The translations under genes and the position numbers were made by a program. A model generated the notes under the pieces. The model did no database searches and was not told where the DNA came from. It worked only from the letters and a program-made list of their open reading frames with translations. From sequence record KY014601.1: 59,024 bases of DNA; one strand, given 5' to 3'. This DNA is from Escherichia phage Utah. Numbering within the stretch: position 1 is the stretch's first letter; the number at the start of each line of letters is the position of its first letter. Below, in pieces: positions 38,126-54,076 of this stretch.

Positions 38126-40321
38126 GTGGCGGATGAAGACGTAGGTATCAGCGCGGCCAAACTGGTCGGCGAAGCCTTGCAGTGGAATGGCGCGAAGCCC
38201 AAACTCACATACCTGTCCCGGTGTGTGGGCGAAGCGTTAGCCATTTCCGCATTGAACATCGACGCGGCGAAAAACTTCGGGGAGGTTTTGCAGTGGGACG
38301 GTAAATTGCCGTCCATCTTCCGCGCGGCCGAGTTGGTCGGCGAAGTGCTGGCGATTCAGAAGATGGAGATCCGCGCGTCAACGATGGTCTGTGAAGCACT
38401 GGTCAAAGAGCCGCAATTTATGGCGGCCGAAATGATCTGCGAGGCTATCGGTCAGGCGGCCACGGAACGGCCACCGCTTTACGCAGATGCGGTTTATCAG
38501 TACGTCACGCAGCACGATGTCGTACCGCCGTTGTCGGATGTCATTTCGCCGGAAAGTCTGTACACGTTGTGGAATTACGCCATTGTCCAGCGGCCGATCG
38601 ATGCCCCGATTTCCTACAACATCGTGAAGCAGGCGGTGACGCTGTCCGTTCTGGCGTCGCCTATCGTGACTATTTCGTACGACAAGGTGAAGACCGCGTG
38701 GTCGTATGCCGTGGTGTCCGCGACGCTCGGTGACTTCCCGCTGCCGGATGAAATGTGGTCGAAGATCAGCACGAAACAGGCGTGGAATCTGGTATTGCAG
38801 TCGATCGACATCCCGTACGTCCCGACGTCTGGTGTGTTCGTTCGCCATGAATCGACGCTGGTGGTTCAGGCCCATCCGCTGCCGATGTACACGACGCCTG
38901 CGTCCGTGAAGTCGAACGTGGTTCTGGCCGCGCAGAAGCGCCCGGTTGAACGACTCCCGCGCTCAAGGACTCGCGTGGCGCAGGCATTATCGCAGGCCGT
39001 TACCGCGTTGCCGATCCCGATGCCCCGGTCAAACGTGTTCGCCGCGCAGACGCTGTCACAGGCGGTCATCCCGGCGGACTTCGTTGACCCGACTGTCGGT
39101 GTCGAGCACGCGGCCGCAGTGACGTCGTATGCTGTTTGCGAGTATCAGGTGTCGCTTCCTATCAGTTACACGCGCGCGAAGACCCTGACGCCGCTGGTGC
39201 TGCAATTTAGCGATAACCAACGAACCATCCCGCTGTCCACGATGCGCACCAAACACGTTTCGTCTCAGTTCTTGGTCAAGTCTGACTTGCGCCCGGTGCT
39301 GTCTCGGATGCGCACCAAACACGTTTCGTCTCAGTTCTTGGTCAAGTCTGACTTGCGCCCGGTGCTGTCTCGGACGCGCGTTAAACAGGTACGCGGCTAT
39401 GCGGTGCGGGCGGAAGAGTACACGCCTCCGATTAACCTGCTGGTATGGTCGCGCGCTGACGCTGTTCGCATGTCGGTGGTGCAGCAGGCAACGGACTACC
39501 CTGACCCGGGAATACCTACAACGTCGGCCATCGTTAGTGCGGCCACGGCGTACCACGTCATGAAAGCGCTGGACTACGAAGACCCGAACGATATGTGGGA
39601 GGCGAGCAAGGTTCAGACCGTGCCGCAGTTATTAGAGAAGGTGGTGAAAGCCCAACCGCTCCGGCTCCCGATCTCGTACGCTCCGCTGGCGCAATTTGTT
39701 GAACTGGTGACGCGGTACCAATACATGCCGCCTCCGGGTGAAGTTGCCGAGTCCGGTATCCATGTTCGTCAGGTAATGCAGCCAGTGGCGTTCCGCGCGA
39801 CGTACCCTGACCCGACTGTCCCGGTATCCTACCTGACGGTCAATCAGGTACTGGAGCACATCGCGACCCCGGCCGACTACCCGGACGCCCACCTGCCGAC
39901 GTCGGACGCGATTGTAAATCAGGTATTGGAACACGTTGCGCAGATTGACGATTTCCCTGATCCCGGTACCATGTTCCGGCCGCTTATTGTCAGCCAGATC
40001 ATTCAGCAGGCGGCACAGGATGCGTCTTACCCGGATTGGAGCACACTGCATAAACCGCTTGCGGTTCAGCAGGTAATTCAGCATGTATCAATGACGGCGG
40101 AATACCCTGACAAGGACGTCCCGCAATCATTTGCAAAGGTGTCTCAAGTTTTGCAGCACTATGCCGATAAAGCTAATTACCCAGACAAAGATGCTCCCCA
40201 ATCCACGCTACGAGTCCGTCAGGTACTTGAGCAGGTAATGATGCGCGACAAGTCGATGTACGAAATGCCGCAGCCACCACGGAAACATCGGGTGCAAATC
40301 ACTTGCCGCTTTGTGTACTGA
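38126..40321 (+). CDS. Highly repetitive protein (N-terminal VGEALQW repeats, tandem 22-aa duplication, C-terminal YPD repeats); possible fibre
   Basis: 731 aa; GTG start after AAGGGGG RBS; repeats LVGEALQWNG / FGEVLQWDG / LVGEVLAI; six or more YPDx units with VNQVLEH / VSQVLQH. Confidence 0.5.
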   Translation: MADEDVGISAAKLVGEALQWNGAKPKLTYLSRCVGEALAISALNIDAAKNFGEVLQWDGKLPSIFRAAELVGEVLAIQKMEIRASTMVCEALVKEPQFMAAEMICEAIGQAATERPPLYADAVYQYVTQHDVVPPLSDVISPESLYTLWNYAIVQRPIDAPISYNIVKQAVTLSVLASPIVTISYDKVKTAWSYAVVSATLGDFPLPDEMWSKISTKQAWNLVLQSIDIPYVPTSGVFVRHESTLVVQAHPLPMYTTPASVKSNVVLAAQKRPVERLPRSRTRVAQALSQAVTALPIPMPRSNVFAAQTLSQAVIPADFVDPTVGVEHAAAVTSYAVCEYQVSLPISYTRAKTLTPLVLQFSDNQRTIPLSTMRTKHVSSQFLVKSDLRPVLSRMRTKHVSSQFLVKSDLRPVLSRTRVKQVRGYAVRAEEYTPPINLLVWSRADAVRMSVVQQATDYPDPGIPTTSAIVSAATAYHVMKALDYEDPNDMWEASKVQTVPQLLEKVVKAQPLRLPISYAPLAQFVELVTRYQYMPPPGEVAESGIHVRQVMQPVAFRATYPDPTVPVSYLTVNQVLEHIATPADYPDAHLPTSDAIVNQVLEHVAQIDDFPDPGTMFRPLIVSQIIQQAAQDASYPDWSTLHKPLAVQQVIQHVSMTAEYPDKDVPQSFAKVSQVLQHYADKANYPDKDAPQSTLRVRQVLEQVMMRDKSMYEMPQPPRKHRVQITCRFVY
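39241..39372 (+). repeat. Perfect 66-bp tandem duplication inside the repeat-protein gene
   Basis: 39241-39306 is identical to 39307-39372 (GATGCGCACCAAACACGTTTCG...GTGCTGTCTCG), encoding MRTKHVSSQFLVKSDLRPVLSR twice. Confidence 0.9.
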
Positions 40322-40339
40322 CAATTGACGGGTTAATAT
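40311..40339 (+). promoter_or_regulatory. Candidate promoter for lysis cassette (TTGTGT-17-TAATAT) directly abutting a terminator hairpin
   Basis: TTGTGT 40311-40316, TAATAT 40334-40339; predicted start would fall inside the 5' arm of the 40344-40370 hairpin. Confidence 0.35.
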
Positions 40340-40343
40340 TCTT

Positions 40344-40370
40344 AGCGGGCTTGTCCCGCTAATTTTTTTT
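40344..40370 (+). terminator. Rho-independent terminator after repeat-protein gene
   Basis: AGCGGG-CTTGT-CCCGCT followed by TTTTTTTT (40363-40370). Confidence 0.7.
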
Positions 40371-40385
40371 GTGAGGAAGCACCCA

Positions 40386-40724
40386 ATGAGCGAAATGGAA
40401 CGGGAACGGCCGGGGGATACCTCCGGCGGCATCAAGTTAGACTTGTCTGTCAATCTCCCCACGATTCTGACGATGGCTTCGATGCTGGTGGCGGCGGTAC
40501 TGTACGTCAATAACCGCTTCGCCGACCTATCAAATCAGAACACGCAGACGGACACCCGGCTTACCAACGTAGAGAAACGTCAGGACTCCACTGAAGCGGC
40601 GTTCACGGTTCTCCGGGCCGAAACCGTCTCGCAAAACTCCGCCCTTCGATCAGACCTTCGCGCCGACATGCGCGACCTGAAACAAAGCGTGGATACCCTA
40701 TCTTCCCAAATGATGAGGAAATAA
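40386..40724 (+). CDS. Putative holin-like membrane protein with C-terminal coiled-coil
   Basis: 112 aa from ATG 40386 (RBS GAGGAAG); single TM-like segment LPTILTMASMLVAAVLYV; directly upstream of lysin-like gene. Confidence 0.4.
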   Translation: MSEMERERPGDTSGGIKLDLSVNLPTILTMASMLVAAVLYVNNRFADLSNQNTQTDTRLTNVEKRQDSTEAAFTVLRAETVSQNSALRSDLRADMRDLKQSVDTLSSQMMRK

Positions 40725-40727
40725 CCG

Positions 40728-41441
40728 ATGGCTAAACAGAAGCCGCGCGGGATTCGCAATAACAACCCGGGCAACATCGAGTGGGGGTCGCCGTGGCAAG
40801 GGCTGATCCCGCGTAACGAGGCGACGGACAGCCGCTTCGCGCAGTTCAAAGACCCGGCATCCGGCATCCGCGCCATTGCTGTCACCCTGACCACCTACTA
40901 CGACAAGCGCAAGGCCAACGACGGCAGCAAAATCGACTCGGTTCGCGAAGTGATCGAGCGGTGGGCACCCGCCGTTGAGAACAACGTATCTGCATACGCT
41001 AAACAGGTGGCCGCCGTTCTGGCCGTTGACCCGAATAGCGAAACGCTGAATCTCCACGACTACGACACCATGCGCGGTCTGGTGGAAGGCATCATCCGCC
41101 ACGAAAACGGGAACCCGGAAGCGTTCGGCCTGACGCCGTACAGCAACGCGAATATGTGGTACTCGGACGAAGTGATCGAGGAGGGTCTGCGCCGGGCGGG
41201 CATCGTTAAGGCGGCCAAGCCTGTTAACCGTACCACCGTGGCCGCGACAAGCGTGGCAGGACTCGGCGCGGCGCAACTGGTTGACATGGTACAGCCCGTC
41301 AAGGCTGCGATGGACAGCGCCCACGGTGATATTTCTTCCGGTGATTGGGTACGCATCGCATTCGGCGCGGCCACAATCGCGATTGGCCTGTACATGGGAT
41401 GGGTCGCGTACCGGAAGCATCGGGCCGGGGCCGCTGCATGA
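40728..41441 (+). CDS. Putative peptidoglycan hydrolase (endolysin-like) with C-terminal transmembrane segment
   Basis: 237 aa; N-terminal GIRNNNPGNIEW motif that I recall from phage muramidase-type proteins (family uncertain); C-terminal hydrophobic WVRIAFGAATIAIGLYMGWVAY; followed by spanins. Confidence 0.45.
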   Translation: MAKQKPRGIRNNNPGNIEWGSPWQGLIPRNEATDSRFAQFKDPASGIRAIAVTLTTYYDKRKANDGSKIDSVREVIERWAPAVENNVSAYAKQVAAVLAVDPNSETLNLHDYDTMRGLVEGIIRHENGNPEAFGLTPYSNANMWYSDEVIEEGLRRAGIVKAAKPVNRTTVAATSVAGLGAAQLVDMVQPVKAAMDSAHGDISSGDWVRIAFGAATIAIGLYMGWVAYRKHRAGAAA

Positions 41442-41692
41442 CGGGGCTACTCGCCCGGATTAAGACGGGCGTCCTTGCGGCGCTCGTTTTCGTTGTGGCC
41501 CTCTTCGGCGTCTGGCGGGCAGGACGCGCGAAGGGCAAACAGGATCAGATTAATAACCAGAACTACGACACGTTGCGGGAACAGGCAAACGCGGATAAAA
41601 ATGTGGCCGAGGTGCATAATGAAATCAATAAACTCCCTGATGGTGGCGCTAACGATCTGCTTCGCCGTAAGTGGATGCGTCGAAAGGATTAA
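41438..41692 (+). CDS. Inner-membrane spanin (Rz-like)
   Basis: 84 aa from ATG 41438 (ATGA overlap with previous stop); N-terminal TM GVLAALVFVVALFGVW, then charged coiled-coil region. Confidence 0.5.
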   Translation: MTGLLARIKTGVLAALVFVVALFGVWRAGRAKGKQDQINNQNYDTLREQANADKNVAEVHNEINKLPDGGANDLLRRKWMRRKD

Positions 41693-41822
41693 CCCTGCGC
41701 CGTCTTTCTGTTCTGTCGCGCGCGCCATCTACATCGGCGAGGAAGACGTGCTGACAGATGAAACCGCACGGCAGATCGCCACCCACGATGAAATCGGCGA
41801 ACGGCTATGCGGCTGGAAATAG
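41619..41822 (+). CDS. Outer-membrane lipoprotein spanin (Rz1-like), overlapping i-spanin in another frame
   Basis: 67 aa from ATG 41619; signal peptide with lipobox LTICFAVSGC. Confidence 0.5.
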   Translation: MKSINSLMVALTICFAVSGCVERINPAPSFCSVARAIYIGEEDVLTDETARQIATHDEIGERLCGWK

Positions 41823-42284
41823 TTAAATGGTCGGGTGGGTAATAATCACAGTACGTTCACCCTCGATTGTCTGGTGGTACCGCAGTGAGGACACCAGATG
41901 ATCGAGGTTATTGAAGACCGGGATATTCAGCCGCTTCGCCTCTTCCACCTCAGCGCGGGTACCGGAACTGCGCATCGCATCTTCGCCAATCAGCAGAACC
42001 GCGTCACAACGGCGCATCAATTCCATCGTGCATTCCAGCCAATATTCGTCCGGTATCTCGCCCTCTGTCTTGTGCTCGAAGTGGGCCGTGTTCAGGTGCG
42101 GAGTAACCGGGAACATCTTGTGGACGTAAAGTTGATCGACAACCGACACGGCCGTCTCTTCGGCTTTCAGGATGTTGACCGTCGTCGGAACGGTGCAGCC
42201 CGAACCGATGATGTACGGGCGGTACGGCCCGGCCAGATAGATCATGACGGGCTTGGCCGCCGGGTTACACATATTCACGTTCAT
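41823..42284 (-). CDS. Nucleoside 2'-deoxyribosyltransferase / DNPH1-like protein
   Basis: 153 aa; VMIYLAGPY N-terminal motif and LLIGEDAMRSSGTRAEVEEA resembling the catalytic-Glu region of deoxyribosyltransferase-fold enzymes. Confidence 0.5.
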   Translation of the reverse strand: MNVNMCNPAAKPVMIYLAGPYRPYIIGSGCTVPTTVNILKAEETAVSVVDQLYVHKMFPVTPHLNTAHFEHKTEGEIPDEYWLECTMELMRRCDAVLLIGEDAMRSSGTRAEVEEAKRLNIPVFNNLDHLVSSLRYHQTIEGERTVIITHPTI

Positions 42285-42565
42285 ATTAAGCCTCGGTTAT
42301 ATTCGTCCACGTATTTTTCATTTTCAGGAGATCGGTCTACCTGATTAATCTCGCTGAACTCGCAGGAAATAATATCCCCACTAGGCAGGCGCACCCGCCA
42401 AAAAACATCCTCTTCACGCGGCCCGGTGCGTTCCCATTCGAGCACGGTTCCGTAGTATTTATGCCCGTTGAATCGGTCAGTGAAATGCACGGAGTCGCCT
42501 TTAATCGGCCAGCCCGGTTTTATCTTGGCACGGTATTTCCGTTTTATAGCCTCAACGTCGATCAT
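42281..42565 (-). CDS. Hypothetical protein
   Basis: 94 aa; operon context, 4-nt overlap with downstream gene. Confidence 0.45.
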   Translation of the reverse strand: MIDVEAIKRKYRAKIKPGWPIKGDSVHFTDRFNGHKYYGTVLEWERTGPREEDVFWRVRLPSGDIISCEFSEINQVDRSPENEKYVDEYNRGLI

Positions 42566-42640
42566 ACTTCATCCTCCTCAAAGTCTTCGTCAAAAAGGTC
42601 GGACTGGCCGCCGGAAAAGCTGACGACAAGCGGCGCTTTG

Positions 42641-43354
42641 TTAGTTGGCATCGGTTGAGTCCTCGCATAATGGTATGAAGTCCTTCGGGCCGTCGCCTGA
42701 ACCGGGGAAGCGCCGGAAGACCATTTCGTCTTCAATGGTCAGTTTATCCTTGCTGTTCCCGCGACGATAGAAGTCGGCCATGCCGCTCCCGTACGAACGG
42801 TCAATCCCGGCACCGTACGGATCTTGCGGGCAAAGTTCCAGCGCCAGCACTTCTCGCCAGTCAGGACGATCGATGCGGCTGACGATGCGATGGTTATTCG
42901 ACACCCGGCAGTACCCCGAGGCTATCAGCGTTTCCGCCAGCCGGGCCTGTTCCTTGCCGCGCATCGTTTTCGCGCGCTTGACATCCTCTTTCCTTGCCCG
43001 GGCGAAATACTCCCGCGAGAAGCGGCTACCGACGTTCTCCGCGAAGATGCGCTGGTCTTTGATGACCATGCCCCATTTCCGTCGGCTACCTTCTTCCACG
43101 TAGCGAATGGCCCCGGCGTAGCGCAGCAGCATGGCATCGGTCAGGCGGGCATTCTTCGGGTCTTTGGCTTTCCACCAGCCGTACACCTCCACCATGCGGG
43201 CCATCGCCTTGTCGCAGTACCACAACTCGGCGTGGCTGGTGGGCGAGTATGTTGGGTAAGACTTTGCGCCGCCGTCAAACGCCCGGTAGCAGTACCAGAC
43301 CCCGCCGCTGTACTGGAAGTGCGGTATCTTGTGATGCTCTTTCATCGTAGCCAT
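42641..43354 (-). CDS. Hypothetical protein
   Basis: 237 aa; Trp/Tyr-rich N-region; no motif recognised. Confidence 0.5.
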   Translation of the reverse strand: MATMKEHHKIPHFQYSGGVWYCYRAFDGGAKSYPTYSPTSHAELWYCDKAMARMVEVYGWWKAKDPKNARLTDAMLLRYAGAIRYVEEGSRRKWGMVIKDQRIFAENVGSRFSREYFARARKEDVKRAKTMRGKEQARLAETLIASGYCRVSNNHRIVSRIDRPDWREVLALELCPQDPYGAGIDRSYGSGMADFYRRGNSKDKLTIEDEMVFRRFPGSGDGPKDFIPLCEDSTDAN

Positions 43355-43355
43355 G

Positions 43356-43808
43356 TCAGTCCTCGGCCAGTTCAGGATTAATGGTAAACCGCAGCCCGTA
43401 CTTAAAATCGTTTACGGACAGCAGATGGATGATGTCGTCCGAGTTTTCTATCTTGATTCCCTTCGCGGCCAGCGCATCCCTCGGCGAAAGCCACGGATCG
43501 ATAGTTAACTGGCGGTATACCGGATCCATGTGTATCGGCGAGCCTTCGCGCACGATGAACGGCAGCGGGTACGGACGGCCAGACCGGGCGTGGATACGGC
43601 GTGGCCCGGGCGAACGGGTAATACCGTAGAACGATGCCATAACGTCGGGCAGCCCTTTCCCGTACATCGAGCGTACGACTTCTTCGTCGCCGCGCAGGAG
43701 CCGCTTAACGATATGCCGGACAAACGGGTACAGATCCCACTTCGCGCGTTGGCGGATGACCGAAGCCTGTCGGCGGGCCTCCTGCTGGAATAATGATCCG
43801 CGTTTCAT
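43356..43808 (-). CDS. Hypothetical protein
   Basis: 150 aa; tightly packed in leftward operon. Confidence 0.5.
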   Translation of the reverse strand: MKRGSLFQQEARRQASVIRQRAKWDLYPFVRHIVKRLLRGDEEVVRSMYGKGLPDVMASFYGITRSPGPRRIHARSGRPYPLPFIVREGSPIHMDPVYRQLTIDPWLSPRDALAAKGIKIENSDDIIHLLSVNDFKYGLRFTINPELAED

Positions 43809-44152
43809 TTTTTATATTTATCCTCTTCGTTGAAATTACGGACAGGCACGCCGTCCCAAATGCGTACGATGCCCGGGTGCGCCTCGCGCCACGATCCGAG
43901 CAGGTGGTCAGCCCACTCCTTCAAGTCTTCGCTGTATGCGGCCAGAAGTCGGTCTTCAATGGACTGGCGTTCCGCTGCGGACATCGGCCCGACCTGATGG
44001 ATGATGTCAAACCAGATCTCGTCGTGGACACCGTTGACGGCCACCAGATAGCCTTTTGCTTCCAGATCTGCGATGACGGCGTGGGTGCGGTCGGCTTTCA
44101 TGCGCATGTAGTTCATGCGGCGGCCCTCCCCCATAAGATTTGCAATGTGCAT
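43805..44152 (-). CDS. Hypothetical protein
   Basis: 115 aa; start uncertain (internal Met at 44116 would give a 2-nt overlap instead of 40 nt). Confidence 0.45.
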   Translation of the reverse strand: MHIANLMGEGRRMNYMRMKADRTHAVIADLEAKGYLVAVNGVHDEIWFDIIHQVGPMSAAERQSIEDRLLAAYSEDLKEWADHLLGSWREAHPGIVRIWDGVPVRNFNEEDKYKK

Positions 44153-44394
44153 GGCGGCTCGTCAGGATCGGAATAGATTTCGAACCCGGCGTCCTTTATC
44201 CAGCCGATCAGCATGGCGCGGGATTTATCGGACAGCGGGTGGTCGTTGTGTAACAGCGCGACCGTAGTGGTTGTCAGCCCGGCCGATGCGGCCCGGCGGA
44301 TAAGATGCTCCACCTCGCCACGCACTTCAATCGCTTCGGCAGTGTGGTGGTCAGTTGCGGCTTGATACATTTCTTCGGCGGTGATAGTCAGCAT
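44113..44394 (-). CDS. Hypothetical protein, first gene of leftward unit 4
   Basis: 93 aa; ATG 44394 preceded by GGGGG RBS and promoter at 44438-44467. Confidence 0.5.
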   Translation of the reverse strand: MLTITAEEMYQAATDHHTAEAIEVRGEVEHLIRRAASAGLTTTTVALLHNDHPLSDKSRAMLIGWIKDAGFEIYSDPDEPPCTLQILWGRAAA

Positions 44395-44415
44395 GTTGCC
44401 CCCTAAAGTAAAAAT

Positions 44416-44435
44416 CCCCGTTGTTGCCTTCGGGG
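44416..44435 (-). terminator. Terminator-like hairpin overlapping the start region of promoter 44438-44467
   Basis: Minus strand: CCCCG-AAGGCAACAA-CGGGG followed by AUUUU; lies between -10 and RBS. Confidence 0.45.
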
Positions 44436-44437
44436 AT

Positions 44438-44467
44438 AATATAGGTTATACACGCGACGTATGTCAA
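44438..44467 (-). promoter_or_regulatory. Leftward promoter with conserved spacer element (TTGACA-TACGTCGCGTGTATAAC-CTATAT)
   Basis: Minus strand -35 TTGACA (44462-44467); spacer contains ACGTCGCGTGTA core shared with promoters at 46494, 49756, 53083. Confidence 0.6.
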
Positions 44468-44474
44468 ACGGTTT

Positions 44475-44987
44475 CTAAGACTTTCTTTTCCGGGCGTGCT
44501 CCAGTCGATCACCGTGGCCCTTCTCGACCATGAAATCGCGGGTCTGTTTGTGCAGGTTGGCGATCGTTTCCTTCGTTTTCCACCAGCGCGCCACTATCCC
44601 TTCGCGCACTTCCCGTTCGCGGAACAGGACGGCCAAGTCATTCGCGGTGATGTCATACCCTTCGCACGCGGCCAAAACTCCGGCCTTGAATTCGTAGAAC
44701 AGGCTTTGGATCTCCCGGAATTCGGCCTCGGTTACGATCTCGATATTGACCGTTTTCCCTTCACCGATGTCGTCCTCGGTAAACAGGCACCCGGCTTCGC
44801 CAATGGCGCGGCCATCGTCCTTCCGGTAGCGCGTATTCCCTACGATGATCTGCGTCGGCGTGGTGCGCTCTACGCGTCGTTTCACGGCGAAGGTTACTTC
44901 CGGGCTGTACCCGATACGGATGCTGTTACGCTCCAGTGTCATGTCGCCAGTTTCGAGGTGTCCGAATCTCAATTTTTTATCGGCCAT
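44475..44987 (-). CDS. Hypothetical protein
   Basis: 170 aa; last gene of leftward unit 3. Confidence 0.5.
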   Translation of the reverse strand: MADKKLRFGHLETGDMTLERNSIRIGYSPEVTFAVKRRVERTTPTQIIVGNTRYRKDDGRAIGEAGCLFTEDDIGEGKTVNIEIVTEAEFREIQSLFYEFKAGVLAACEGYDITANDLAVLFREREVREGIVARWWKTKETIANLHKQTRDFMVEKGHGDRLEHARKRKS

Positions 44988-45223
44988 TCTGCGTATTCTC
45001 CCTTCGGTAATTCGTCAGTCACGTCGCGCTCGGCCCATTTCAGGAACGCTTCGCGGGTACAACTCGGGTAGTGTCGGCCGAAGCCTACGACCGGGCCGTC
45101 GTACTGGATGTGCGTGGCCCCGATGTACAGGATAGTGCGGTCGTTCACCAGTCCGTTTCGGTTCTGCGGCCGTTTACCGCGATAGGTGCGGCCGACTTTA
45201 AGTTTTAACTCTTCATCGGCCAT
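44969..45223 (-). CDS. Hypothetical protein
   Basis: 84 aa; overlapping neighbours. Confidence 0.45.
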   Translation of the reverse strand: MADEELKLKVGRTYRGKRPQNRNGLVNDRTILYIGATHIQYDGPVVGFGRHYPSCTREAFLKWAERDVTDELPKGEYAEWPIKN

Positions 45224-45625: not shown

Positions 45626-45635
45626 GGTGGCCCCT

Positions 45636-46454: not shown

Positions 46455-46463
46455 AATAAAAAA

Positions 46464-46491
46464 CTCCCGTTGGTGGATTAACCTTCGGGAG
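46464..46491 (-). terminator. Intrinsic terminator hairpin overlapping promoter 46494-46522
   Basis: Minus strand: CUCCCG-(16 nt loop)-CGGGAG followed by UUUUUU (plus A-run 46458-46463). Confidence 0.6.
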
Positions 46492-46493
46492 TA

Positions 46494-46522
46494 ATATTAA
46501 TTACACATGTCGCGTATGTCAA
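46494..46522 (-). promoter_or_regulatory. Leftward promoter (TTGACA-17-TAATAT) with conserved spacer element
   Basis: -35 TTGACA 46517-46522, spacer TACGCGACATGTGTAAT, -10 TAATAT 46494-46499. Confidence 0.6.
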
Positions 46523-46531
46523 ACGCTTTCT

Positions 46532-47218
46532 TTAAATCTCGTCCCACATCTTGATCCAGCGGTTCCGGATCTTGGCCGATACGTTAGCCAGTGGTGCGCC
46601 GATTTCCAGTAGCGTTTCACGGTCGATATACTCGTTGGGGAAGATGCGGTCAGTCGCCGGGTCGAAGATGTGGATGGCTGCGCCGAACCCGGCCGACGTG
46701 ATTTCGCTGCTGCCTTCCTTCGGCCGGAACCAGACTGGCGGTTCGAACCCGATGCGCCCTTTGATGAAGATGGTGCGCGTGGCGATAGCGTCCGGCCACC
46801 AGCTTTCCGACGTCGCCGCTTTGGTCAGCCAGATGGTGCCAGCGCCTTTTGCCCGTTCCTCGTCGGCCTTGCGCATGATGTGGGTCATCCCGGTAAGCGG
46901 TTCTTTCCCGGCGCGCTTCTGACTGTACGGCGGGTTAGCGTAGGCCCAAACTCGGGTCTTGGCGTCGAATTCGTCGCTGGCGTGGATCTCGGCCAGACGC
47001 TTCGCCCAATCCTGCCGCAGCGCGTTATCTTCGGCCGTAAAGAATCGCTCGCATTTGGCGTTCTGGCCGTCGGTGAACAGGTCGAGCACGATTGGCCCGT
47101 ACAGCTTGTTAATCGCTTGGAACAGCCACTCCGGCGTACGCCATTGGTCGCCTATCCACTTCGGTTCATGCTCGTCTAAACCTTTCAGCGCGTTCAGCGC
47201 ATCAACGTACTGACTCAT
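46532..47218 (-). CDS. DNA N6-adenine methyltransferase (phage Dam-type)
   Basis: 228 aa; N-terminal WRTPEWLF motif and catalytic ANPPY motif IV characteristic of phage N6-adenine MTases. Confidence 0.7.
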   Translation of the reverse strand: MSQYVDALNALKGLDEHEPKWIGDQWRTPEWLFQAINKLYGPIVLDLFTDGQNAKCERFFTAEDNALRQDWAKRLAEIHASDEFDAKTRVWAYANPPYSQKRAGKEPLTGMTHIMRKADEERAKGAGTIWLTKAATSESWWPDAIATRTIFIKGRIGFEPPVWFRPKEGSSEITSAGFGAAIHIFDPATDRIFPNEYIDRETLLEIGAPLANVSAKIRNRWIKMWDEI

Positions 47219-48318
47219 TAAAAAGTTTCTCCGTTCAGCAGGTCTTCGGCCTCAATGTAGAAGGCTTCGTATTTGTCAGCCGCCATCATGGACAGCGGGT
47301 GGGCGCCGGAATATTTACGGATCAGATCGCTGAACGTGGATGCGCTCATTGACGCGTGGATGCGGTTTATCATGTCCTTGACCATCTGCTGCGTGACTGG
47401 TTTTGGCGGAGGTGACAGCAGCAGGTTATCGCACATCGCATGGATGTACGTGACGATCGGTGCTGGCAGGTTCGCCACCAGATTCGCGTCAAGGCGGTAA
47501 TGCGGCGTGTCGAGGTACTCGGCGGCATGGTCAGGGTACGCCCGAAAGCCGGACAGGATCACCATGCGGGCCGTGGTCAGGTCGATGGCCGCCAGTTCTT
47601 CCCACGCGGCGCGGACTGACGCGGACTGTCGGGTGTACCGTACGTTATTCTGCATCGACTTAACCGTGGCGCGCAGCTTTGTGATCTCCCTGTCGTGCTC
47701 GGTGTTATCGTCAGCGTGTCGGCGATGGGCTTCGGCCAACTGGATTTGCAGACTGGTGACAGCGCTTTCCGCCGTATCGAGGCTGCGGGTCTTGGTATCC
47801 AGCGCTTCGCGTAGTGCGGCCAGTTCGCCCGGCGTGATGTTGGCGAGGCGCAGCGGTTCGAAGTCTTTCAGCGTCAGCGGGCCATCGCTGGTCATCTGTC
47901 CGGTCAGGCGCTGTATGTCCTGCATAGCGAGGCTTCCAGCCAGACCGATGCTGGTGGTGCCTGCAATCTTCGCGTATTTAGCGCTGGCACGTACCGTTTC
48001 GAGGATGGTGCTCAGGATCTGCTGGCACTGCTCGCGCTCCCACTCGGTCACTTCTGCGGCCGTTGGCGTAACCGCCGATGGGCGTTTAACTCGCGTCCAG
48101 TGAATGCGGATTTCCCGGGGCATTGCGTCGCCGTCCACCTCGACTTCATCGACTGACTGGATGTTCCCTTCCGGAACGCCGCAGTTATCGAGAAGGTATT
48201 TATGCGCCACGCACAGGATATGATTTGGGGATATGCCGCCTTCCTGCTCGATAGCCATGACGAGGATGTCTTTCAGGCTTTTGTCGTCGGTGATGTAAGT
48301 GACTTTTGGTTCGCTCAT
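47218..48318 (-). CDS. Hypothetical protein
   Basis: 366 aa; central coiled-coil-like region; no motif recognised. Confidence 0.5.
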   Translation of the reverse strand: MSEPKVTYITDDKSLKDILVMAIEQEGGISPNHILCVAHKYLLDNCGVPEGNIQSVDEVEVDGDAMPREIRIHWTRVKRPSAVTPTAAEVTEWEREQCQQILSTILETVRASAKYAKIAGTTSIGLAGSLAMQDIQRLTGQMTSDGPLTLKDFEPLRLANITPGELAALREALDTKTRSLDTAESAVTSLQIQLAEAHRRHADDNTEHDREITKLRATVKSMQNNVRYTRQSASVRAAWEELAAIDLTTARMVILSGFRAYPDHAAEYLDTPHYRLDANLVANLPAPIVTYIHAMCDNLLLSPPPKPVTQQMVKDMINRIHASMSASTFSDLIRKYSGAHPLSMMAADKYEAFYIEAEDLLNGETF

Positions 48319-48989
48319 TTGGATGCCTTTAAGATGTTAGAGAATTCAACGATGTTAACGATTTTGTGCTGGCGGCCGCTGTTCGATCTGGCGAGGCTGG
48401 CCGACTCCATCACGCGAGGATTCATTTCAACGCGCGGCGTGCGCCCGGTACCGTATTGATCCATGCTGCTCATGCGGTCAACGCTGATGCTGTACATCTG
48501 GCTGGCCGTCATCCAGTTACCCATCGTATTGATGAAAAATTCCATCGCCTGCAATGCGTCGAGTGCATAGACCAACGTGGACGCGTTGTCCGTGTACAGC
48601 ACGTACGCGCCGACGGACGGAACAACCTTATCGACGCCGCTCATGTATTCGGCGATCCACTCCGGCGGCACTGGCGGTACCGCTCGACATTCTCCGGACG
48701 CCGGGGTGCCGTACGGATAGGCGAAAGCCGGGCTGGCCGAAACGCGACGTCCGGTGGGCGTGGTCGTAACAGTTGCTTTCGGCTCGTCTTTCGGAAGGTT
48801 CTGGAGACAGGCCGGGCCGCCTTGCCAGCGTTTCCAGATCGTTTTCTTCGGCTCGTCTGACTCCGGAGCGGTACATGGCGGCGGGTCGATGTCATTCGCG
48901 TCCCATGTCTTCTGGCAGTCGCGACAATAAAACTGGTCGCTATGCTGCACGACGGATAAATGACTTCCGCCATTGGCTTCGATTCTCAT
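48315..48989 (-). CDS. Hypothetical protein with N-terminal Cys-rich (zinc-ribbon-like) segment
   Basis: 224 aa; FYCRDCQKTW...PPPC near N-terminus. Confidence 0.5.
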   Translation of the reverse strand: MRIEANGGSHLSVVQHSDQFYCRDCQKTWDANDIDPPPCTAPESDEPKKTIWKRWQGGPACLQNLPKDEPKATVTTTPTGRRVSASPAFAYPYGTPASGECRAVPPVPPEWIAEYMSGVDKVVPSVGAYVLYTDNASTLVYALDALQAMEFFINTMGNWMTASQMYSISVDRMSSMDQYGTGRTPRVEMNPRVMESASLARSNSGRQHKIVNIVEFSNILKASK

Positions 48990-49732
48990 ATCTCAACGTC
49001 CTCTTCTTTCAAAATGCGGAATGCGCCACCGCCGACTTTCCAGCCCTGCCATACGTCGGCCAGAAGCGCCGCCCGGTACTTCCGGCGAAACACGTTGTAG
49101 ATCATGTCCCAATTCTCGGATGGCAGGTCTGACGCGATACCGCCGCTCTCCCAAGCCCAATCGCGAGGCGACTGCGTCAGCCATTTCAGCGGGGGCCGGG
49201 GGTAGACGTACGGATTCGCCAGACCGCAGGCCACCAGCCCGCGTTTAATCCATGCACGTTGCCACCATAAATCGTGAACCGTCTTCCCGGCGATGAATTC
49301 TTCGTCCAGCATCGCGCACAGGATCGTCATGGCGGCCTTTTCTGCGTTCATGGGTACGCCAATGTCGTCCCAATCTTCCAGCGCGGCCCTGACGCCGTCA
49401 GCGCTGCCGTCGTCGTTGCTGGAGGCTGAACGGTCATGCAGGATGACGTCGAAAACCATGAACGGGAACACGACCTGTTCGCCGTTCCGCGTGTATTTCG
49501 GGTTAGGCTCGCTGAACATAGCCGAGTACAGGCGGCGGACGTGGTCTTCGAGATCCGGGACGAAGCCCGTCAGGTTGTCGGTTGTATCGGCGTTAACGAC
49601 TTCAATGTCGGTTCCGTTGGTGCGGATCAGGCAGCGCGGCCCGTATGGCAGGGGGAAAACGTACAGCACTTCTTTCCCGATCAACGCTTGGTTGAAAGGT
49701 ACGAATTTCATTACGTGGGTCTTCATCGGCAT
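48986..49732 (-). CDS. Hypothetical protein, first gene of leftward unit 2
   Basis: 248 aa; ATG 49732 with AAGGAG RBS downstream of promoter 49756-49784. Confidence 0.5.
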   Translation of the reverse strand: MPMKTHVMKFVPFNQALIGKEVLYVFPLPYGPRCLIRTNGTDIEVVNADTTDNLTGFVPDLEDHVRRLYSAMFSEPNPKYTRNGEQVVFPFMVFDVILHDRSASSNDDGSADGVRAALEDWDDIGVPMNAEKAAMTILCAMLDEEFIAGKTVHDLWWQRAWIKRGLVACGLANPYVYPRPPLKWLTQSPRDWAWESGGIASDLPSENWDMIYNVFRRKYRAALLADVWQGWKVGGGAFRILKEEDVEI

Positions 49733-49755
49733 GACTCCTTTGTTATGGTACGGGA

Positions 49756-49784
49756 ATATTAGTCGTACACGCGACGTACGTCAA
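49756..49784 (-). promoter_or_regulatory. Leftward promoter (TTGACG-17-TAATAT) with conserved spacer element
   Basis: -35 TTGACG 49779-49784, spacer TACGTCGCGTGTACGAC, -10 TAATAT 49756-49761. Confidence 0.6.
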
Positions 49785-49808
49785 TAACTTTATTCGGGGC
49801 AAAAGAAA

Positions 49809-49835
49809 GCCCGCGTAAAGGGATTGCGGGCTTTT
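49809..49835 (-). terminator. Bidirectional rho-independent terminator ending leftward unit 1
   Basis: GCCCGC (49809-49814)-loop-GCGGGC (49826-49831) with TTTT on plus side and AAAAGAAA (U-run on minus transcript) on the other. Confidence 0.65.
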
Positions 49836-49921
49836 GGAAGGTGGCATCCGAAGATTACCACTGGCTTAAAGCGGACAACGCAGGAGCCGATAAGGAAGCA
49901 CTATGCCGAGTCCGCAGTTAA

Positions 49922-50197
49922 TCATATGTCGGGGTTACTGTAAATAAGATTCCAGTATTTGTACTCCTTCAAGTCCAGTTCGATGACGCATGGGTCATCC
50001 AGCGCGCTCAGGCAGGTGCCGTAGTCCTCGACAAAGACGCAGGAGGATTCCGGGTGATGCAGCAGTCGCACCCGTCGGTAGTTCAGGTGCCATTCCGGAC
50101 TGAACACATGGTTCTCCGGCTGGCGTATCAGCATGATCTGGCCTGTCGTTCTGACCTGCCAGTATTGGTCTACTTGGGGCGTGGCATAGGCTCCCAT
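49922..50197 (-). CDS. Hypothetical protein
   Basis: Start placed at internal ATG 50197 (RBS AAGGAG) rather than 50329 to avoid 128-nt overlap with upstream gene. Confidence 0.4.
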   Translation of the reverse strand: MGAYATPQVDQYWQVRTTGQIMLIRQPENHVFSPEWHLNYRRVRLLHHPESSCVFVEDYGTCLSALDDPCVIELDLKEYKYWNLIYSNPDI

Positions 50198-50201
50198 TTC
50201 G

Positions 50202-50435
50202 TTACTCCTTTTTGTCCGCTCTGTCCCGGTAAACGCGGGTACCCATCTTCCCGTAGATCTGGTCTTGCAACGTGAACCGGATGGACAGGCGGATGTTAAG
50301 CCGATAGCCCATTCGACGCAGATAGCCAAGATCCTGCGGCTTCACGCCTTCGATAAAGAACGAATCGCCGTCCTTCATCCCGAGCAGAAGTTTTTCGTGA
50401 GTTTCACGCACGCTTTTGTCGGTAGTCGCGGCCAT
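50202..50435 (-). CDS. Hypothetical protein
   Basis: 77 aa; immediately downstream of RdgC-like gene. Confidence 0.45.
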   Translation of the reverse strand: MAATTDKSVRETHEKLLLGMKDGDSFFIEGVKPQDLGYLRRMGYRLNIRLSIRFTLQDQIYGKMGTRVYRDRADKKE

Positions 50436-50437
50436 TG

Positions 50438-51526
50438 TTAAACCTCGTCGTCGTCTTCTTCGTCGTCTTCTTCGTCGTTCAGCGTTCCGGTGTACTCGAC
50501 TACCTGCCCGGCCTCGTCCAGCACGCTGATCACCGCACGCAGGGACTTATCGAGTTGGAACAGGTTAGCCATCATGGTCAGGAACTGGCCGCCGTCGGTG
50601 CCGTAGCGTTCGAGCGTGGCGTCGTAGTTCGCATCAACGTCGGCCTCGCCGATGTGGATACCGGACAGGATGGCTTTGTCGGACAGGCGGAAGTACACGG
50701 TGTCGATGCCCGGGCATTGCGTATCGACTTCGAGATCCAGCGCGCGGACAGTCCAGTGACGTGACAGCAGGTCAACCACCGACTCGTCTTTGAAGATGTC
50801 CGTGTCCTTCATCTTGACGTCGTCGCCATCGTCGTGTTTCAGGTGGATAAACGCATCGCCCTTGATGCCGTCCTGCTGGCCGAGAACCGCGCGCTGCATT
50901 AACTGGCGCAGCTCATACTCGCTCGGCAGGAGGTGTTCGACGGGCCATGTGCCGAGCGCGGTACGGATCAGCGCGCTGCACTCTTCTGCCGTCTTCGCGC
51001 TCGACGTGAACACGTACACGAACGGGGCGGACAGGATGACGTTGACGCGGGAAGGGCGGATAGGCGCGTGTTTCAGCATTTCCGCTTCCACGTCGTCCTT
51101 CATCTGCGCCCAATCCTTGCGGTTCGGCTCCCAACCCTCGATCTCTTTCTCCCGCAACGCGGCCATGCGCTTCACGACTTCATTTCGTACGCTGACGCCG
51201 GGCAACACACGTTCGCGTTTCTCGATCTGGAAGACGATGGCGTTTGTCCCGGGGATGGCGAGGGCGAATTTGCTGTCAACCTCTTCGCCGTACGCTGCAA
51301 AGCCCATTGTCTTGTAAGACGCCTCCGGCGGATCTGACACTTCATGCTTTTCGAGTGCATCGCTTAACGCTCCTTTAGCGAAAGACGTCACCGCCTCTTC
51401 GTCAACGTTCGGCAGATTCAGGATCAGGCGGTGCAGCGGCTTGACCTTCTCGTTACCGTCGTTGGCCGCGTCATACAGCGCGCCGAGGTGCAGGATAATG
51501 GCTTTCTCATAACCCTTGATTTTCAT
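50438..51526 (-). CDS. RdgC-like recombination-associated protein with long acidic C-terminal tail
   Basis: 362 aa; region SALIRTALGTWPVEHLLPSE resembles E. coli RdgC (LALLRKSLGSLPVVPLS); ends ...NDEEDDEEDDDEV. Confidence 0.55.
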   Translation of the reverse strand: MKIKGYEKAIILHLGALYDAANDGNEKVKPLHRLILNLPNVDEEAVTSFAKGALSDALEKHEVSDPPEASYKTMGFAAYGEEVDSKFALAIPGTNAIVFQIEKRERVLPGVSVRNEVVKRMAALREKEIEGWEPNRKDWAQMKDDVEAEMLKHAPIRPSRVNVILSAPFVYVFTSSAKTAEECSALIRTALGTWPVEHLLPSEYELRQLMQRAVLGQQDGIKGDAFIHLKHDDGDDVKMKDTDIFKDESVVDLLSRHWTVRALDLEVDTQCPGIDTVYFRLSDKAILSGIHIGEADVDANYDATLERYGTDGGQFLTMMANLFQLDKSLRAVISVLDEAGQVVEYTGTLNDEEDDEEDDDEV

Positions 51527-51869
51527 TCTCTATGGCTCCCAAGTTGATTAGATTGGCTGGTGCTCCGTGGTACATGGATTGCGCTGCATGGAACATCGCG
51601 GCGCGTAGTGCTTCTTTGGCCGCCCGAAGGCCCGCCATTGATTCAGCGTACTGGTCGCTGACCGTGTTATACGCCGCCTCGTCGTTGTCCAGCGTGGCGA
51701 GGTCGAGCATTTTGGTACTATGGGCCTGCACGTCGTCTTCCATGTCCTTGAAAAACGTCTCAAGGGCAGACAGTTTGCAGGTGATTTGGTCTAACCGGAC
51801 TTTGCGCAGTTCTTGGTACTGCACGCGAACGAATTCAATGCCTTCCACCAGCCACCTCCACGACGACAT
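51507..51869 (-). CDS. Hypothetical protein
   Basis: 120 aa. Confidence 0.45.
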   Translation of the reverse strand: MSSWRWLVEGIEFVRVQYQELRKVRLDQITCKLSALETFFKDMEDDVQAHSTKMLDLATLDNDEAAYNTVSDQYAESMAGLRAAKEALRAAMFHAAQSMYHGAPANLINLGAIENENQGL

Positions 51870-52170
51870 TCTGCACTTCCGGGCATGGCATATTCGTCAT
51901 GGCCCAATCCAGAAACTTCACGATGTACATGCGCATGGCCGCACATTCGTCCGCGCCACGGGCCTTGCCGTGCTTCGCGATGGCCGGGTCGCCGGACTGA
52001 TAGAAGGTCACGCGGTGATTCGTGGCCGACGACACCTTGATCCCGGTGTGCGTGGCATGGATGGTCACGCTGTAGATCCGCTCGATAGCGCGGAACGCCG
52101 GGACGACGTCGATGCGGCCTTTCGGGTGAATAGCGTTGTTCACCATCAACGCGGTATTAGTCGGCTGCAT
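51835..52170 (-). CDS. Hypothetical protein
   Basis: 111 aa. Confidence 0.45.
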   Translation of the reverse strand: MQPTNTALMVNNAIHPKGRIDVVPAFRAIERIYSVTIHATHTGIKVSSATNHRVTFYQSGDPAIAKHGKARGADECAAMRMYIVKFLDWAMTNMPCPEVQNVVVEVAGGRH

Positions 52171-52597
52171 TGAGCGGATCCTCTTTCAGACGGTAGGTGA
52201 TGGTGTCCGGGCGAGTCGCGTCGATTTCCAGTTCAGGCATCTGCCCGGTGATCAGGCGGGACGGCGTAAGAACTGCGGTGCGCAGGCCGTTCTCGAACAT
52301 GATGTTGGCCGCCGTGACCAGCGAAATACTTTCGATGTGGTCTTGGGTCTGGTCGAGGCGGCGCTGTAACAGTTCGACCTTCTCGGCGTTCTCGTCCGGA
52401 ATGTCGAAGGCAGACCGCAATCCGGCGATCAATGCGATGGCGTCCGCGCGGGTCAGGGGGGTGGCGATCTCGGTGTCACCGTTGTCCTTCTCGATGTAGA
52501 TCTCGCCCTCTTTTTGGCCGGGCTTCTTATAGATAAAGGCCGTACGGGCAATGTCTCGTACCGGACTCAGTTCAATAGGGTGGTGCGTTGTTTTCAT
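52157..52597 (-). CDS. Hypothetical protein
   Basis: 146 aa. Confidence 0.45.
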   Translation of the reverse strand: MKTTHHPIELSPVRDIARTAFIYKKPGQKEGEIYIEKDNGDTEIATPLTRADAIALIAGLRSAFDIPDENAEKVELLQRRLDQTQDHIESISLVTAANIMFENGLRTAVLTPSRLITGQMPELEIDATRPDTITYRLKEDPLNAAD

Positions 52598-52668
52598 CGG
52601 TGTGCGTCCTATAGGGTGTCAGGTCAAAAGGGTGGTACGCCATTTTTCAGGCGTGCCGTCCTACGTTT

Positions 52669-53040
52669 TTAAACTTCGTCGTCGTCCGCGACGTCGGTGG
52701 CCGTACAGGTTACGACGGCCTGAATGAACATGCGGCCAGACGGGTAAGTCACCAGTGCGGATTCCATACTGAACCGTTGGCCGTGGTGTTTCATGGCGTT
52801 CCGGATGGAAGAATTAAGGCTGGCCCGCATCTTCGCTTTGAGGGCATTGGCCTCGTCCTGTACCTGCGAAAGCGTACGGTCAAGCGGGAGTTCTTGGGAC
52901 AGGGTGTACACGCCACCGACTTCCAGCGCAATGAGGTTCCCCACGACGCTGTACACGCGCACGCGTGACGGCAGTTCAACATCCGGCTCGGTCGTCATCA
53001 TTGCGCCAGTCAGTTCGGCCGGGCTTAGTTCTTTGCTCAT
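52669..53040 (-). CDS. Hypothetical early protein with acidic C-terminus, first gene of leftward unit 1
   Basis: 123 aa; ends ...TDVADDDEV; promoter 53083-53111 upstream. Confidence 0.5.
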   Translation of the reverse strand: MSKELSPAELTGAMMTTEPDVELPSRVRVYSVVGNLIALEVGGVYTLSQELPLDRTLSQVQDEANALKAKMRASLNSSIRNAMKHHGQRFSMESALVTYPSGRMFIQAVVTCTATDVADDDEV

Positions 53041-53082
53041 TGGGATGGCTCCAGTTGGTTCGTTAAATGTTACGTTCGGAGA

Positions 53083-53111
53083 ACAATAGTTCTACACGCG
53101 ACGTATGTCAA
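53083..53111 (-). promoter_or_regulatory. Leftward early promoter (TTGACA-17-TATTGT) with conserved spacer element
   Basis: -35 TTGACA 53106-53111, spacer TACGTCGCGTGTAGAAC, -10 TATTGT 53083-53088. Confidence 0.55.
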
Positions 53112-53164
53112 TTCATTTCATCCAGTAATTATGATGACCGGGTGACGCTCCAGTTTAGTTTCAG

Positions 53165-53753: not shown

Positions 53754-53800
53754 ACGGGGCAAAAAGTCCAGGCGATAAACTAACTTTATGAGGTATCACG

Positions 53801-54058: not shown

Positions 54059-54076
54059 TTTAATAAGGGGATCACT

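Follow-up and report, generated by a model that had tools for sequence, protein, structure and literature searches.

We identified a conserved 15-bp dyad, CAYACG-N3-CGTRTG, inside the −35/−10 spacer of six promoters (P1–P6) in the right arm of Escherichia phage Utah (sequence record KY014601.1; the whole stretch of DNA analysed, 59,024 bp, is called the window). The dyad is centred at about −24. It is symmetric, keeps its position in each promoter, is conserved in related phages and is replaced by other dyads in other lineages. Judging from these comparisons, the element is likely a site for a phage-encoded DNA-binding protein, and its occupancy would probably cause repression. On balance, we favour the interpretation that the dyad is the operator of a phage-encoded dimeric helix-turn-helix (HTH) protein responsible for a Cro-like shut-off, with gp3 as the best candidate. 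The specific assignment of gp3 as the binding protein, which draws on a structure model, is tentative.

Among flagellum-dependent phages Chi is the classic case, and development of Chi-like phages for Salmonella biocontrol is under way. Gene regulation in these phages is essentially uncharacterised so far, and both the regulon and the gp3 family are undescribed; the principle of placing an operator within a promoter is textbook knowledge. The progress made concerns annotation and mechanism in one phage family, not principle. The window begins with GGTGCGCAGAGC, the published cos overhang of phage Chi (PMC4342425), and is 93–97% identical to Chivirus genomes such as TS13, iEPS5 and Chi; it thus represents a complete Chi-like genome (Chivirus, Casjensviridae). 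Chi is lytic, and its genome paper names ‘two putative transcription regulators’ and does not mention promoters (PMC4342425). Literature searches returned no account of either the motif or these promoters.

A spacer dyad shared by six right-arm promoters

P1–P6 lie where a first-pass annotation of the same DNA had placed them (Table 1), and a consensus scan recovered all six as sigma70-like promoters. They have a near-TTGACA −35 hexamer, a TAnnnT −10 hexamer, 17 ± 1 bp spacing, an intergenic location and a co-oriented gene downstream. P4 is the leftward half of a divergent promoter pair. The feature start that accompanied the annotated promoters, 40311, has no bearing on the element.

To describe conservation, we calculated position-wise information for 34 promoters from six genera, anchored on TTGACA; the typical spacer among them is 17 bp. 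TTGAC of the −35 hexamer carries 2.0 bits. Within the spacer, T-20 carries 2.0 bits; A-28, C-27 and T-18 carry 1.8 bits; G-26, C-22 and G-21 carry 1.1–1.3 bits; and Y-29 (only C or T) and R-19 (only A or G) carry about 1 bit each. Information falls to 0.5–0.8 bits in the central triplet (−25 to −23), to 0.4–0.85 bits in the 3′ part of the spacer (−16 to −13) and to about 0 bits in the downstream flank. In the −10 hexamer, T-12, A-11 and T-7 carry 1.5–1.8 bits and the three inner bases 0.3–0.4 bits. Positions −28, −27, −20 and −18 therefore match the −35 hexamer in information and exceed the interior of the −10 hexamer, which bears out the earlier remark that the spacer is unusually conserved: part of it is as conserved as the hexamers themselves. 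The dyad spans −31 to −17 (−33 to −13 in an extended form) and covers the 3′ end of the −35 hexamer, its left arm overlapping the last two bases. Upstream, an A-rich tract (AAA at −42 to −40) is conserved in the same promoters and resembles a proximal UP subsite. Because they combine consensus −35 hexamers, optimal spacers and this UP-like AAA, P1–P6 are predicted to be strong without any added factor.

A symmetrised 15-bp position weight matrix (PWM), trained only on promoters of the other phages L007, Enc34, XAP3, Stilesk and N137, located one dyad per promoter. Its nine best matches in the window were P1–P6 and three of four copies near the right end, described below. Nine matches reached at least 12 bits; in 100 first-order Markov simulations the number averaged 1.9 and never exceeded 6. 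The first-pass annotation had read the shared core as ACG[CT]CGCGT[AG]TA. A shared element is real, with five exact matches to TTGACNNACGNCGCGT in the window against 0.01 expected from shuffles; the boundaries drawn for it were not those of the true unit, CAYACG-N3-CGTRTG. P2 fails TTGACNNACGNCGCGT only because the earlier alignment was approximate; its spacer is the same dyad with a single G-to-A transition.

Several observations indicate that the element behaves as a dyad. First, the centre flips between C and G. Chi-type phages have the central triplets CCG, CGG, TCG, CGA and TGA, and the central base is C in some phages and G in others (ACGCCGCGT versus ACGCGGCGT). Second, both orientations occur at orthologous promoters: where the leftward promoters in the window have the core ACGTCGCGT, the orthologous promoter in Enc34 and L007 has the reverse complement, ACGCGACGT. 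Finally, Klebsiella phage N137 keeps only the arms, around the AT-rich centres GAA, AAT, AAA and ATT (for example CACG-GAA-CGTATG, CACG-AAT-CGTGTT and TACG-ATT-CGTGTG). Two variants are present in the window: CATACG-TCG-CGTGTA at the leftward promoters, and CGCACG-CCG-CGTATA-TCA at the rightward promoters and the right-end copies. In the rightward promoters the symmetry reaches 21 bp, TGA-CGC-ACGC-C-GCGT-ATA-TCA.

The dyad marks the right-arm promoter class only, since the promoters of gp1, gp3 and gp4 do not have it. The near-consensus sigma70-like promoter for gp3 (3876, minus strand; TTGACA-17-TAATAT) and that for gp4 onward (3966, plus strand; TTGACA-18-CATACT) carry other palindromes, and gp1 is probably transcribed from an extended −10 promoter (TGCTATAAT at ~576–584). 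Control of ‘all early units’ through the element, as first suggested, does not agree with these three promoters. Nor does it agree with Serratia phage JS26, in which the counterpart of the leftward operons is expressed as middle and that of the rightward operons as early (PMC8754663).

Two alternative readings of the spacer as polymerase contacts were rejected. The conserved GTRTG is 3 bp out of register with the −10 hexamer for an extended −10 (TRTG), and ‘TATCAT’ in the rightward spacer has no −35 hexamer at a usable distance to serve as an alternative −10. A T4 MotA-type middle promoter was also rejected: the −35 consensus TTGACA/G is present in all copies and is not replaced by a −30 box.

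Two kinds of weaker match were recorded. A near-site, CTGACGCAAGCCGCGTATG (45875–45893, 11.6 bits), lies inside the open reading frame (ORF) 45636–46454 on the transcribed strand and could be a vestigial promoter/operator or a chance match. L012-type loci in IMG/VR each hold a single 19-nt site in a non-promoter context, with the same sequence in five short contigs. These look like chance matches, because a pattern so short is estimated to recur by chance in a collection that large.

Table 1. Promoters, dyad copies and related features of the window. The −35 hexamer of each promoter starts at the upper coordinate for leftward (−) and at the lower coordinate for rightward (+) promoters.
Feature	Position	Strand	Description	Dyad	PWM score (bits)
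P1	44438–44467	−	TTGACA, 18-nt spacer, TATATT	CATACG-TCG-CGTGTA, 44449–44463	19.2
P2	46494–46522	−	TTGACA, 17-nt spacer, TAATAT	CATACG-CGA-CATGTG, 46504–46518	18.5
P3	49756–49784	−	TTGACG, 17-nt spacer, TAATAT	CGTACG-TCG-CGTGTA, 49766–49780	13.6
P4	53083–53111	−	TTGACA, 17-nt spacer, TATTGT	CATACG-TCG-CGTGTA, 53093–53107	19.2
P5	53707–53736	+	TTGACG, 18-nt spacer, TACATT	CGCACG-CCG-CGTATA, 53711–53725; extended 21-bp quasi-palindrome TGACGCACGCCGCGTATATCA, 53708–53728	14.6
P6	56484–56513	+	TTGACG, 18-nt spacer, TATATT	56488–56502; extended form 56485–56505	14.6
Right-end copy 1	58585–58603	−	Directly after the plus-strand terminator	CGCACGCCGCGTATATCAG	
Right-end copy 2	58644–58662	−		CGCACGCCGCGTATATCAT	
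Right-end copy 3	58692–58710	−	Degenerate	TGCACGTCGTGTATATCAG	9.3
Right-end copy 4	58765–58783	−		CGCACGCCGCGTATATCAT	
Terminator-like hairpin	58548–58580	+	Intrinsic-terminator-like hairpin and U run; ends the rightward P6 operon just before the copy cluster		
gp1	614–901		XRE/HTH_37 protein (Pfam)		
gp3	3524–3805	−	93 aa; candidate binder		
Left genome part	Left 10 kb		gp1 (HTH), primase gp2, gp3 (‘transcriptional regulator’), replication genes; then structural and lysis genes		
Right arm	~41.8–58.5 kb		~34 genes, mostly of unknown function		
Right-arm leftward block	53.1 to 41.8 kb	−			
Right-arm rightward block	53.7 to 58.5 kb	+			

Dyad copies outside promoters at the right genome end

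The motif search of the genome and its relatives proposed in the first-pass annotation revealed four overlooked copies at 58585–58783, and similar copies in Enc34, RedJac, Stilesk, N137 and XAP3. All four copies are in noncoding DNA, with 240–440 bp between them and the right cos end, and a 19-nt extended form (CGCACGCCGCGTATATCAT) is common to them and the P5 and P6 spacers. They lack −35 and −10 hexamers, and a promoter scan of 58400–59024 found no promoter-like site. Conservation of the cluster of the window extends to 97 phage records. The noncoding right end of RedJac contains four to five non-promoter copies, scoring up to 21 bits. Enc34 has two right-end non-promoter copies, one of them inverted; Stilesk has two, XAP3 one and N137 one that is perfect. 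Because the element survives promoter-free across genera with unalignable flanks, these comparisons mark it as a site in its own right, not a polymerase determinant.

The same copies bear on the suggestion, also made in the first-pass annotation, that the element sets specificity for a modified host RNA polymerase. In that reading polymerase itself, altered by the phage, would recognise the element, or DNA structure would make the promoters supercoil-sensitive. The sigma factor and the beta′ zipper approach the spacer where the element sits, purines alternate with pyrimidines in both half-sites, and every substitution at −29 or −19 is a transition. However, four to five copies per genome are located away from promoters, with neither a −35 nor a −10 hexamer; the element is palindromic and polymerase contacts are not; and the hexamers are near consensus already. 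As for structure, the alternating tracts are merely 6–10 bp long and out of phase at the centre, and the dyad of Proteus phage Saba is non-alternating (ACCG...CGGGGT). We consider recognition by polymerase or a structural role extremely unlikely.

The right-end cluster may be functionally linked to the rightward promoters, because the extended form is shared only by the cluster, P5 and P6. The right-end copies might act as auxiliary sites through looping or cooperative occupancy with P5 and P6, which lie 4.9 and 2.1 kb away, through titration of the regulator, or as a roadblock behind the terminator.

The copies change together in some relatives. In L005 and L024 (phage Season12) they read GTATACCA instead of GTATATCA (TATATCA to TATACCA); the altered form is found in all four copies of L005, in all three detected in Season12 and also in the P5 spacer of L005. 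This concerted change suggests gene conversion among copies. A second motif, CCATAG(C/G)C (for example CACACCATAGGCCCG and TGCCATAGCCCCGC), occurs on both sides of cos (58626–58860 and 40–52), interleaved with the dyad copies, and repeats of the ATAGCCCG type also flank the genome end of JS26. This motif may be linked to cos or terminase recognition.

We regard the right-end cluster as a less likely replication origin, as a separate iteron-like array lies between P4 and P5. Between these divergent promoters, 53140–53410 contains five direct repeats of ~22 nt, CCGG(G/A)T..TTTTTCAAGTAAGc. JS26 has six repeats with the related core GGTACTTGAGAAAGCC in the same place between its divergent blocks (L033, 6750–6990). 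The P4–P5 repeats look like iterons and are a candidate replication origin flanked by early promoters.

The dyad follows the phage lineage

More distant Casjensviridae keep the promoter architecture and have a different spacer motif. We identified seven right-arm promoters in Saba with the form TTGACT-ACCG-N3-CGGGGT, the dyad again overlapping the −35 hexamer. Providencia phage Kokobel1 has TTGACA-CCk...mGGT. In JS26, two early promoters share the conserved spacer TTTGCAT-CCGkCsCATATTCGG, and the middle promoters have another. The Chi-type dyad is common to phages of Salmonella, Hafnia, Klebsiella and Providencia.

This distribution separates a phage-borne binder from a host transcription factor, through which a flagellotropic phage might read host physiology. 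CtrA in alphaproteobacteria offers a precedent, since phages that depend on a pilus or flagellum have clustered CtrA sites in their promoters and terminal regions (PMC9437464). The combination of promoters and a genome-end cluster is superficially like that pattern, and the spread of the Chi-type dyad over phages of four host genera could be accommodated as well. We know of no enterobacterial factor that matches the dyad motif. Moreover, phages of one host differ. Providencia stuartii was the isolation host of both RedJac and Kokobel1, yet the dyad is Chi-type in the first and Saba-type in the second. JS26 infects Serratia and does not have the Chi-type dyad, yet Chi itself infects Serratia marcescens (PMC11291754), and close Chi relatives such as Smarc6 are recorded on S. 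marcescens. Regulation by a host factor is accordingly very unlikely.

Across the phages compared, the motif type tracks phage lineage, not host. Lineage-specific dyads argue for phage-carried, co-evolving regulator/operator pairs, of which they would be the signature. Because the motif type follows lineage, we favour a phage-encoded dimeric binder over a host factor or a polymerase determinant. The earlier proposal of a regulator-binding site thus gains from the dyad symmetry, the use of either orientation, the non-promoter copies and the replacement by other dyads in other lineages.

Candidate binding proteins

As possible binders, the first-pass annotation had named an XRE-type protein (gp1) and a small HTH protein (gp3) encoded at the left end. 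Only the second remains plausible. We rejected gp1 as a general binder on two observations: it is absent from Enc34 and Stilesk, which keep the motif, and Season12 carries a 35%-identical allele with its sites unchanged. The gene is mosaic, with the allele of the window in about 33 records and the 35%-identical allele at the same place in other Chi-like phages. Its nearest other relatives in a tblastn search are in Pseudomonas PAK_P-type myoviruses.

Among proteins conserved in all genomes examined, gp3 alone is recognisable as an HTH protein. Its gene is present in every family member examined, in each case directly upstream of that for the primase. When 1.8 billion representatives were searched with a profile, a small family of ~93-aa proteins emerged, with the scaffold MxFPxWA...RLxYL...AAL...LxxLAxxAGV...WLxxP and a hypervariable segment at the recognition helix. 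gp3 belongs to PHROG 7401 (‘unknown function’); it had zero Pfam matches at E ≤ 0.01 (HTH_3 included), zero matches in a PDB sequence search and only two matches in a word-indexed protein search. A confident AlphaFold2 model (pLDDT, the predicted local distance difference test, 94.7) places the HTH at residues 32–38 and 43–51, the latter being the recognition helix. Its Foldseek neighbours are all Cro/CI/XRE-type dimeric operator binders, as weak matches (E 0.04–0.4; template modelling (TM) score 0.4–0.55): HigA-operator complexes, ClgR, SinR-N, the restriction–modification controller proteins C.BclI, C.AhdI and C.Kpn2I, and 434 repressor.

The recognition helix varies together with the dyad. 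Residues Y43, T45, W48 and N52 do not vary among the five genera with a Chi-type dyad. Saba and Kokobel1, whose dyad is of another type, have in common another helix, SVRGVSQAIERG, and the JS26 helix differs again. This co-variation, as seen in the aligned sequences, fits gp3 as the binder. Contigs with intermediate gp3 homologues (P0007 and P0008) end short of the promoters.

We also weighed the possibility that the dyad is an operator for a phage protein other than gp3, either one of the right-arm proteins (~30 of unknown function), in which case an early product would regulate its own expression, or a cos or packaging protein; we consider this unlikely, though clearly less so than the host and polymerase explanations. 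A cos-associated or packaging protein would account for the copies beside cos, which are interleaved with the cos-proximal CCATAGsC-like repeats. The control region of gp3 itself contains unrelated palindromes and GGTACC sites, and most early products have no detectable family, so that a DNA-binding fold could go unseen among them. On the other side, no other conserved protein has an HTH or DNA-binding signature. Pfam found no DNA-binding domain among the right-arm products (~33 ORFs), and PHROGs found no DNA-binding or regulator family among 16 of these ORFs. The right-arm genes are mosaic between genera, whereas the dyad is constant in the Chi group. We rejected the equivalent of Chi gp70 (56228–56449), recorded as ‘DNA binding protein’ in XAP3 and N137: the product is small and has two hydrophobic membrane-spanning segments, predicted transmembrane helices, and the annotation appears to be wrong.

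The gp3 region has regulatory features of its own. In the gp3 promoter (3848–3876), the hexamers are covered by two further palindromes, TTGACAGATGTCAA and CCGGATATAATATCCGG. The gp3–gp4 intergenic region has two GGTACC sites (3893–3898 and 3934–3939) upstream of the gp4 promoter, and such pairs are found again in the same region of Enc34, Stilesk, XAP3, N137 and JS26. The GGTACC sites and the gp3-promoter palindromes point to a second, separate control system. The gp3 leader (3818–3840) contains a conserved alternating purine–pyrimidine stretch of 12–18 bp (for example CGCGTGTGTGTGCGTGTA in N137 and CGCATGTGCGCGTGTG in Stilesk) that holds one dyad half-site. The reading of this leader as an autoregulatory copy of the dyad is not supported: it has no PWM score, and Saba and Kokobel1, which have other dyads, contain a comparable GCGC-rich element.

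A proposed Cro-like shut-off

Our preferred interpretation, an operator for a phage-encoded dimer with gp3 as the leading candidate, leads to the following scheme. P1–P6 would fire with unmodified host sigma70 polymerase once DNA enters, because they have near-consensus −35 hexamers, 17–18 bp spacers and an UP-like tract. As the regulator accumulated, it would fill the dyads and compete with sigma region 4 and polymerase for the −35 hexamer and the spacer. A dimer over −31 to −17 would exclude both, so repression is the expected effect. The right-arm operons would then be turned down together, a Cro-like shut-off in a virulent phage.

Gene-level timing from RNA sequencing of JS26 (PMC8754663) is relevant to this scheme. 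There, the block of short unknown genes that corresponds to the Chi rightward operons is early, the methylase/RdgC block that corresponds to the leftward operons is middle, and the replication block, which includes the gp3 orthologue, is middle (PMC8754663). This order is consistent with a regulator that appears slightly after its first targets. By analogy with JS26, leftward and rightward promoters may be timed differently.

Several points count against the interpretation. We infer protein binding, the identity of gp3 and repression from sequence and predicted structure. The fold matches of gp3 are weak, as the Foldseek values above indicate. Three lineage classes underlie the co-variation of helix and dyad, with general sequence divergence as a confounder, since gp3 of the window shares 21–25% identity with its orthologues in JS26, Saba and Kokobel1. 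The real targets of gp3 could instead be the palindromes TTGACAGATGTCAA and CCGGATATAATATCCGG or the GGTACC sites. Dyads are degenerate at some promoters of XAP3 and Stilesk. Saba and JS26 have no copies of their own dyads near the genome end, so the right-end cluster is not universal. Finally, a simple early shut-off may not describe all six promoters, because in JS26 the operons that correspond to the leftward ones are expressed as middle genes (PMC8754663) despite constitutive-looking promoters.

The scheme yields a testable regulon of ten sites with a 15-bp consensus and a leading candidate protein, and it excludes gp1. The natural specificity variants (Chi, Saba/Kokobel1 and JS26 types) could be used to prove the pairing of regulator and dyad. 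If the scheme is true, the promoter/operator/repressor sets would provide small orthogonal parts in which an operator is built into a strong sigma70 promoter. A broader and doubtful extension is that a Cro-like gp3 family of ~93 aa co-evolves with lineage dyads, set in the spacers of sigma70 promoters that would otherwise be constitutive, throughout Casjensviridae, and that the Chi cos-end cluster couples shut-off to genome-end events. Such coupling might involve looping over a long distance to the early promoters, or it might link control to the entry, circularisation or packaging of the DNA.

Comparison with known systems

The closest parallels are the Cro/CI operators of lambdoid phages (lambda OR/OL, 434 and P22), where, as here, short dyads with a tolerant centre overlap strong divergent early promoters. 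The presumed binder is likewise a small phage HTH dimer, and the predicted fold of gp3 is of the same class. Lambda Cro lowers early transcription in lytic growth, as proposed for Chi, and the cooperation of lambda OL and OR by looping over 2.3 kb provides a model for the Chi right-end cluster. However, lambdoid phages have three adjacent cooperative sites at two promoters, whereas here single sites are dispersed over six or more promoters. Lambdoid phages also have an immunity repressor, whereas no CI-type repressor or integrase was recognised among the proteins scanned here, and the phage is virulent.

Operators for the C1 repressor of phage P1 are single and scattered, mostly overlap promoters and coordinate separate operons, as the dyads would. 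They are asymmetric 17-mers, in contrast to symmetric 15-mers at a fixed spacer register, and C1 maintains lysogeny whereas Chi is virulent. MerR-type operators (merO, soxS, copA and zntA) share the geometry of the dyad, centred near −24 with the left arm over the 3′ end of the −35 hexamer. MerR promoters have 19–20 bp spacers that the regulator untwists, and the spacers here have the optimal 17–18 bp; we rejected MerR-type activation on these grounds. No MerR domain was found in any scanned product.

Restriction–modification C proteins, which are among the structural neighbours of gp3, are small XRE-fold dimers that bind short palindromes over the −35 hexamer and spacer, as proposed here. They autoregulate one promoter through paired C-boxes as a delayed activator/repressor switch, unlike the dispersed single dyads of Chi, and the C-boxes differ in site sequence and have no sequence relation to the Chi system.

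Promoter modules and their possible mobility

The PeSL elements of T4-type phages, a different group from Chi, combine a repeated early sigma70 promoter with a stem-loop between gene blocks, as is also seen here, with at least P5 at a mosaic junction. PeSL elements have no palindromic spacer and have not been proposed as operators; in the window, the spacer dyad is the most conserved part. The resemblance raises the possibility that there is no dedicated binder, and that the six promoters are a paralogous mobile cassette under selection for strength alone. Four promoters (P1, P2, P5 and P6) are promoter-plus-stem-loop modules, Chi-like homology breaks directly after the P5 module, and the joint change of cluster copies in L005 and Season12 amounts to concerted evolution. 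However, conservation is position-specific and symmetric, with 2 bits in the spacer against 0.3 bits at neighbouring positions and in the −10 interior. The dyad is also kept across genera with unalignable flanks and in copies without promoter hexamers, and different dyads occupy the same position in other lineages. We judge the cassette explanation improbable and retain the operator.

The stem-loops follow P1, P2, P5 and P6; none follows P3 or P4. After P1 (44405–44437) and P2 (46458–46493), a GC stem-loop and U run (−11 and −14.6 kcal/mol) come directly after the −10 hexamer, and the left stem arm overlaps the predicted transcription start. Read-through from upstream would consequently terminate, and promoter-initiated transcripts would be hairpin-free. 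This compact terminator/promoter overlap is kept in Enc34, L007, N137, Stilesk and XAP3.

The predicted leader of the P5 and P6 transcripts, AAATTCCCTTCGGGGG (53740–53760 and 56517–56535), is conserved and folds into a UUCG-loop hairpin. It is also found after both JS26 early promoters, despite the different −35 hexamer and spacer there, and may serve as a 5′ stabiliser. An Rfam scan of 40000–59024 gave zero matches. In Season12, FSL SP-039 and S.Ent 1-35-3, homology to the window ends right after the P5 promoter and leader module, at ~53759, and small contigs match the promoter module alone. Because of this break and these contigs, the P5 promoter cassette appears to be a recombination junction.

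At the opposite end of the genome, the left-end noncoding DNA (220–505) contains 7 of the 9 GTTACAA heptamers of the genome, in both orientations (for example GGTTACAAGTTACA). They may be sites for terminase (cosB-like) or for a regulator and have no relation to the dyad.

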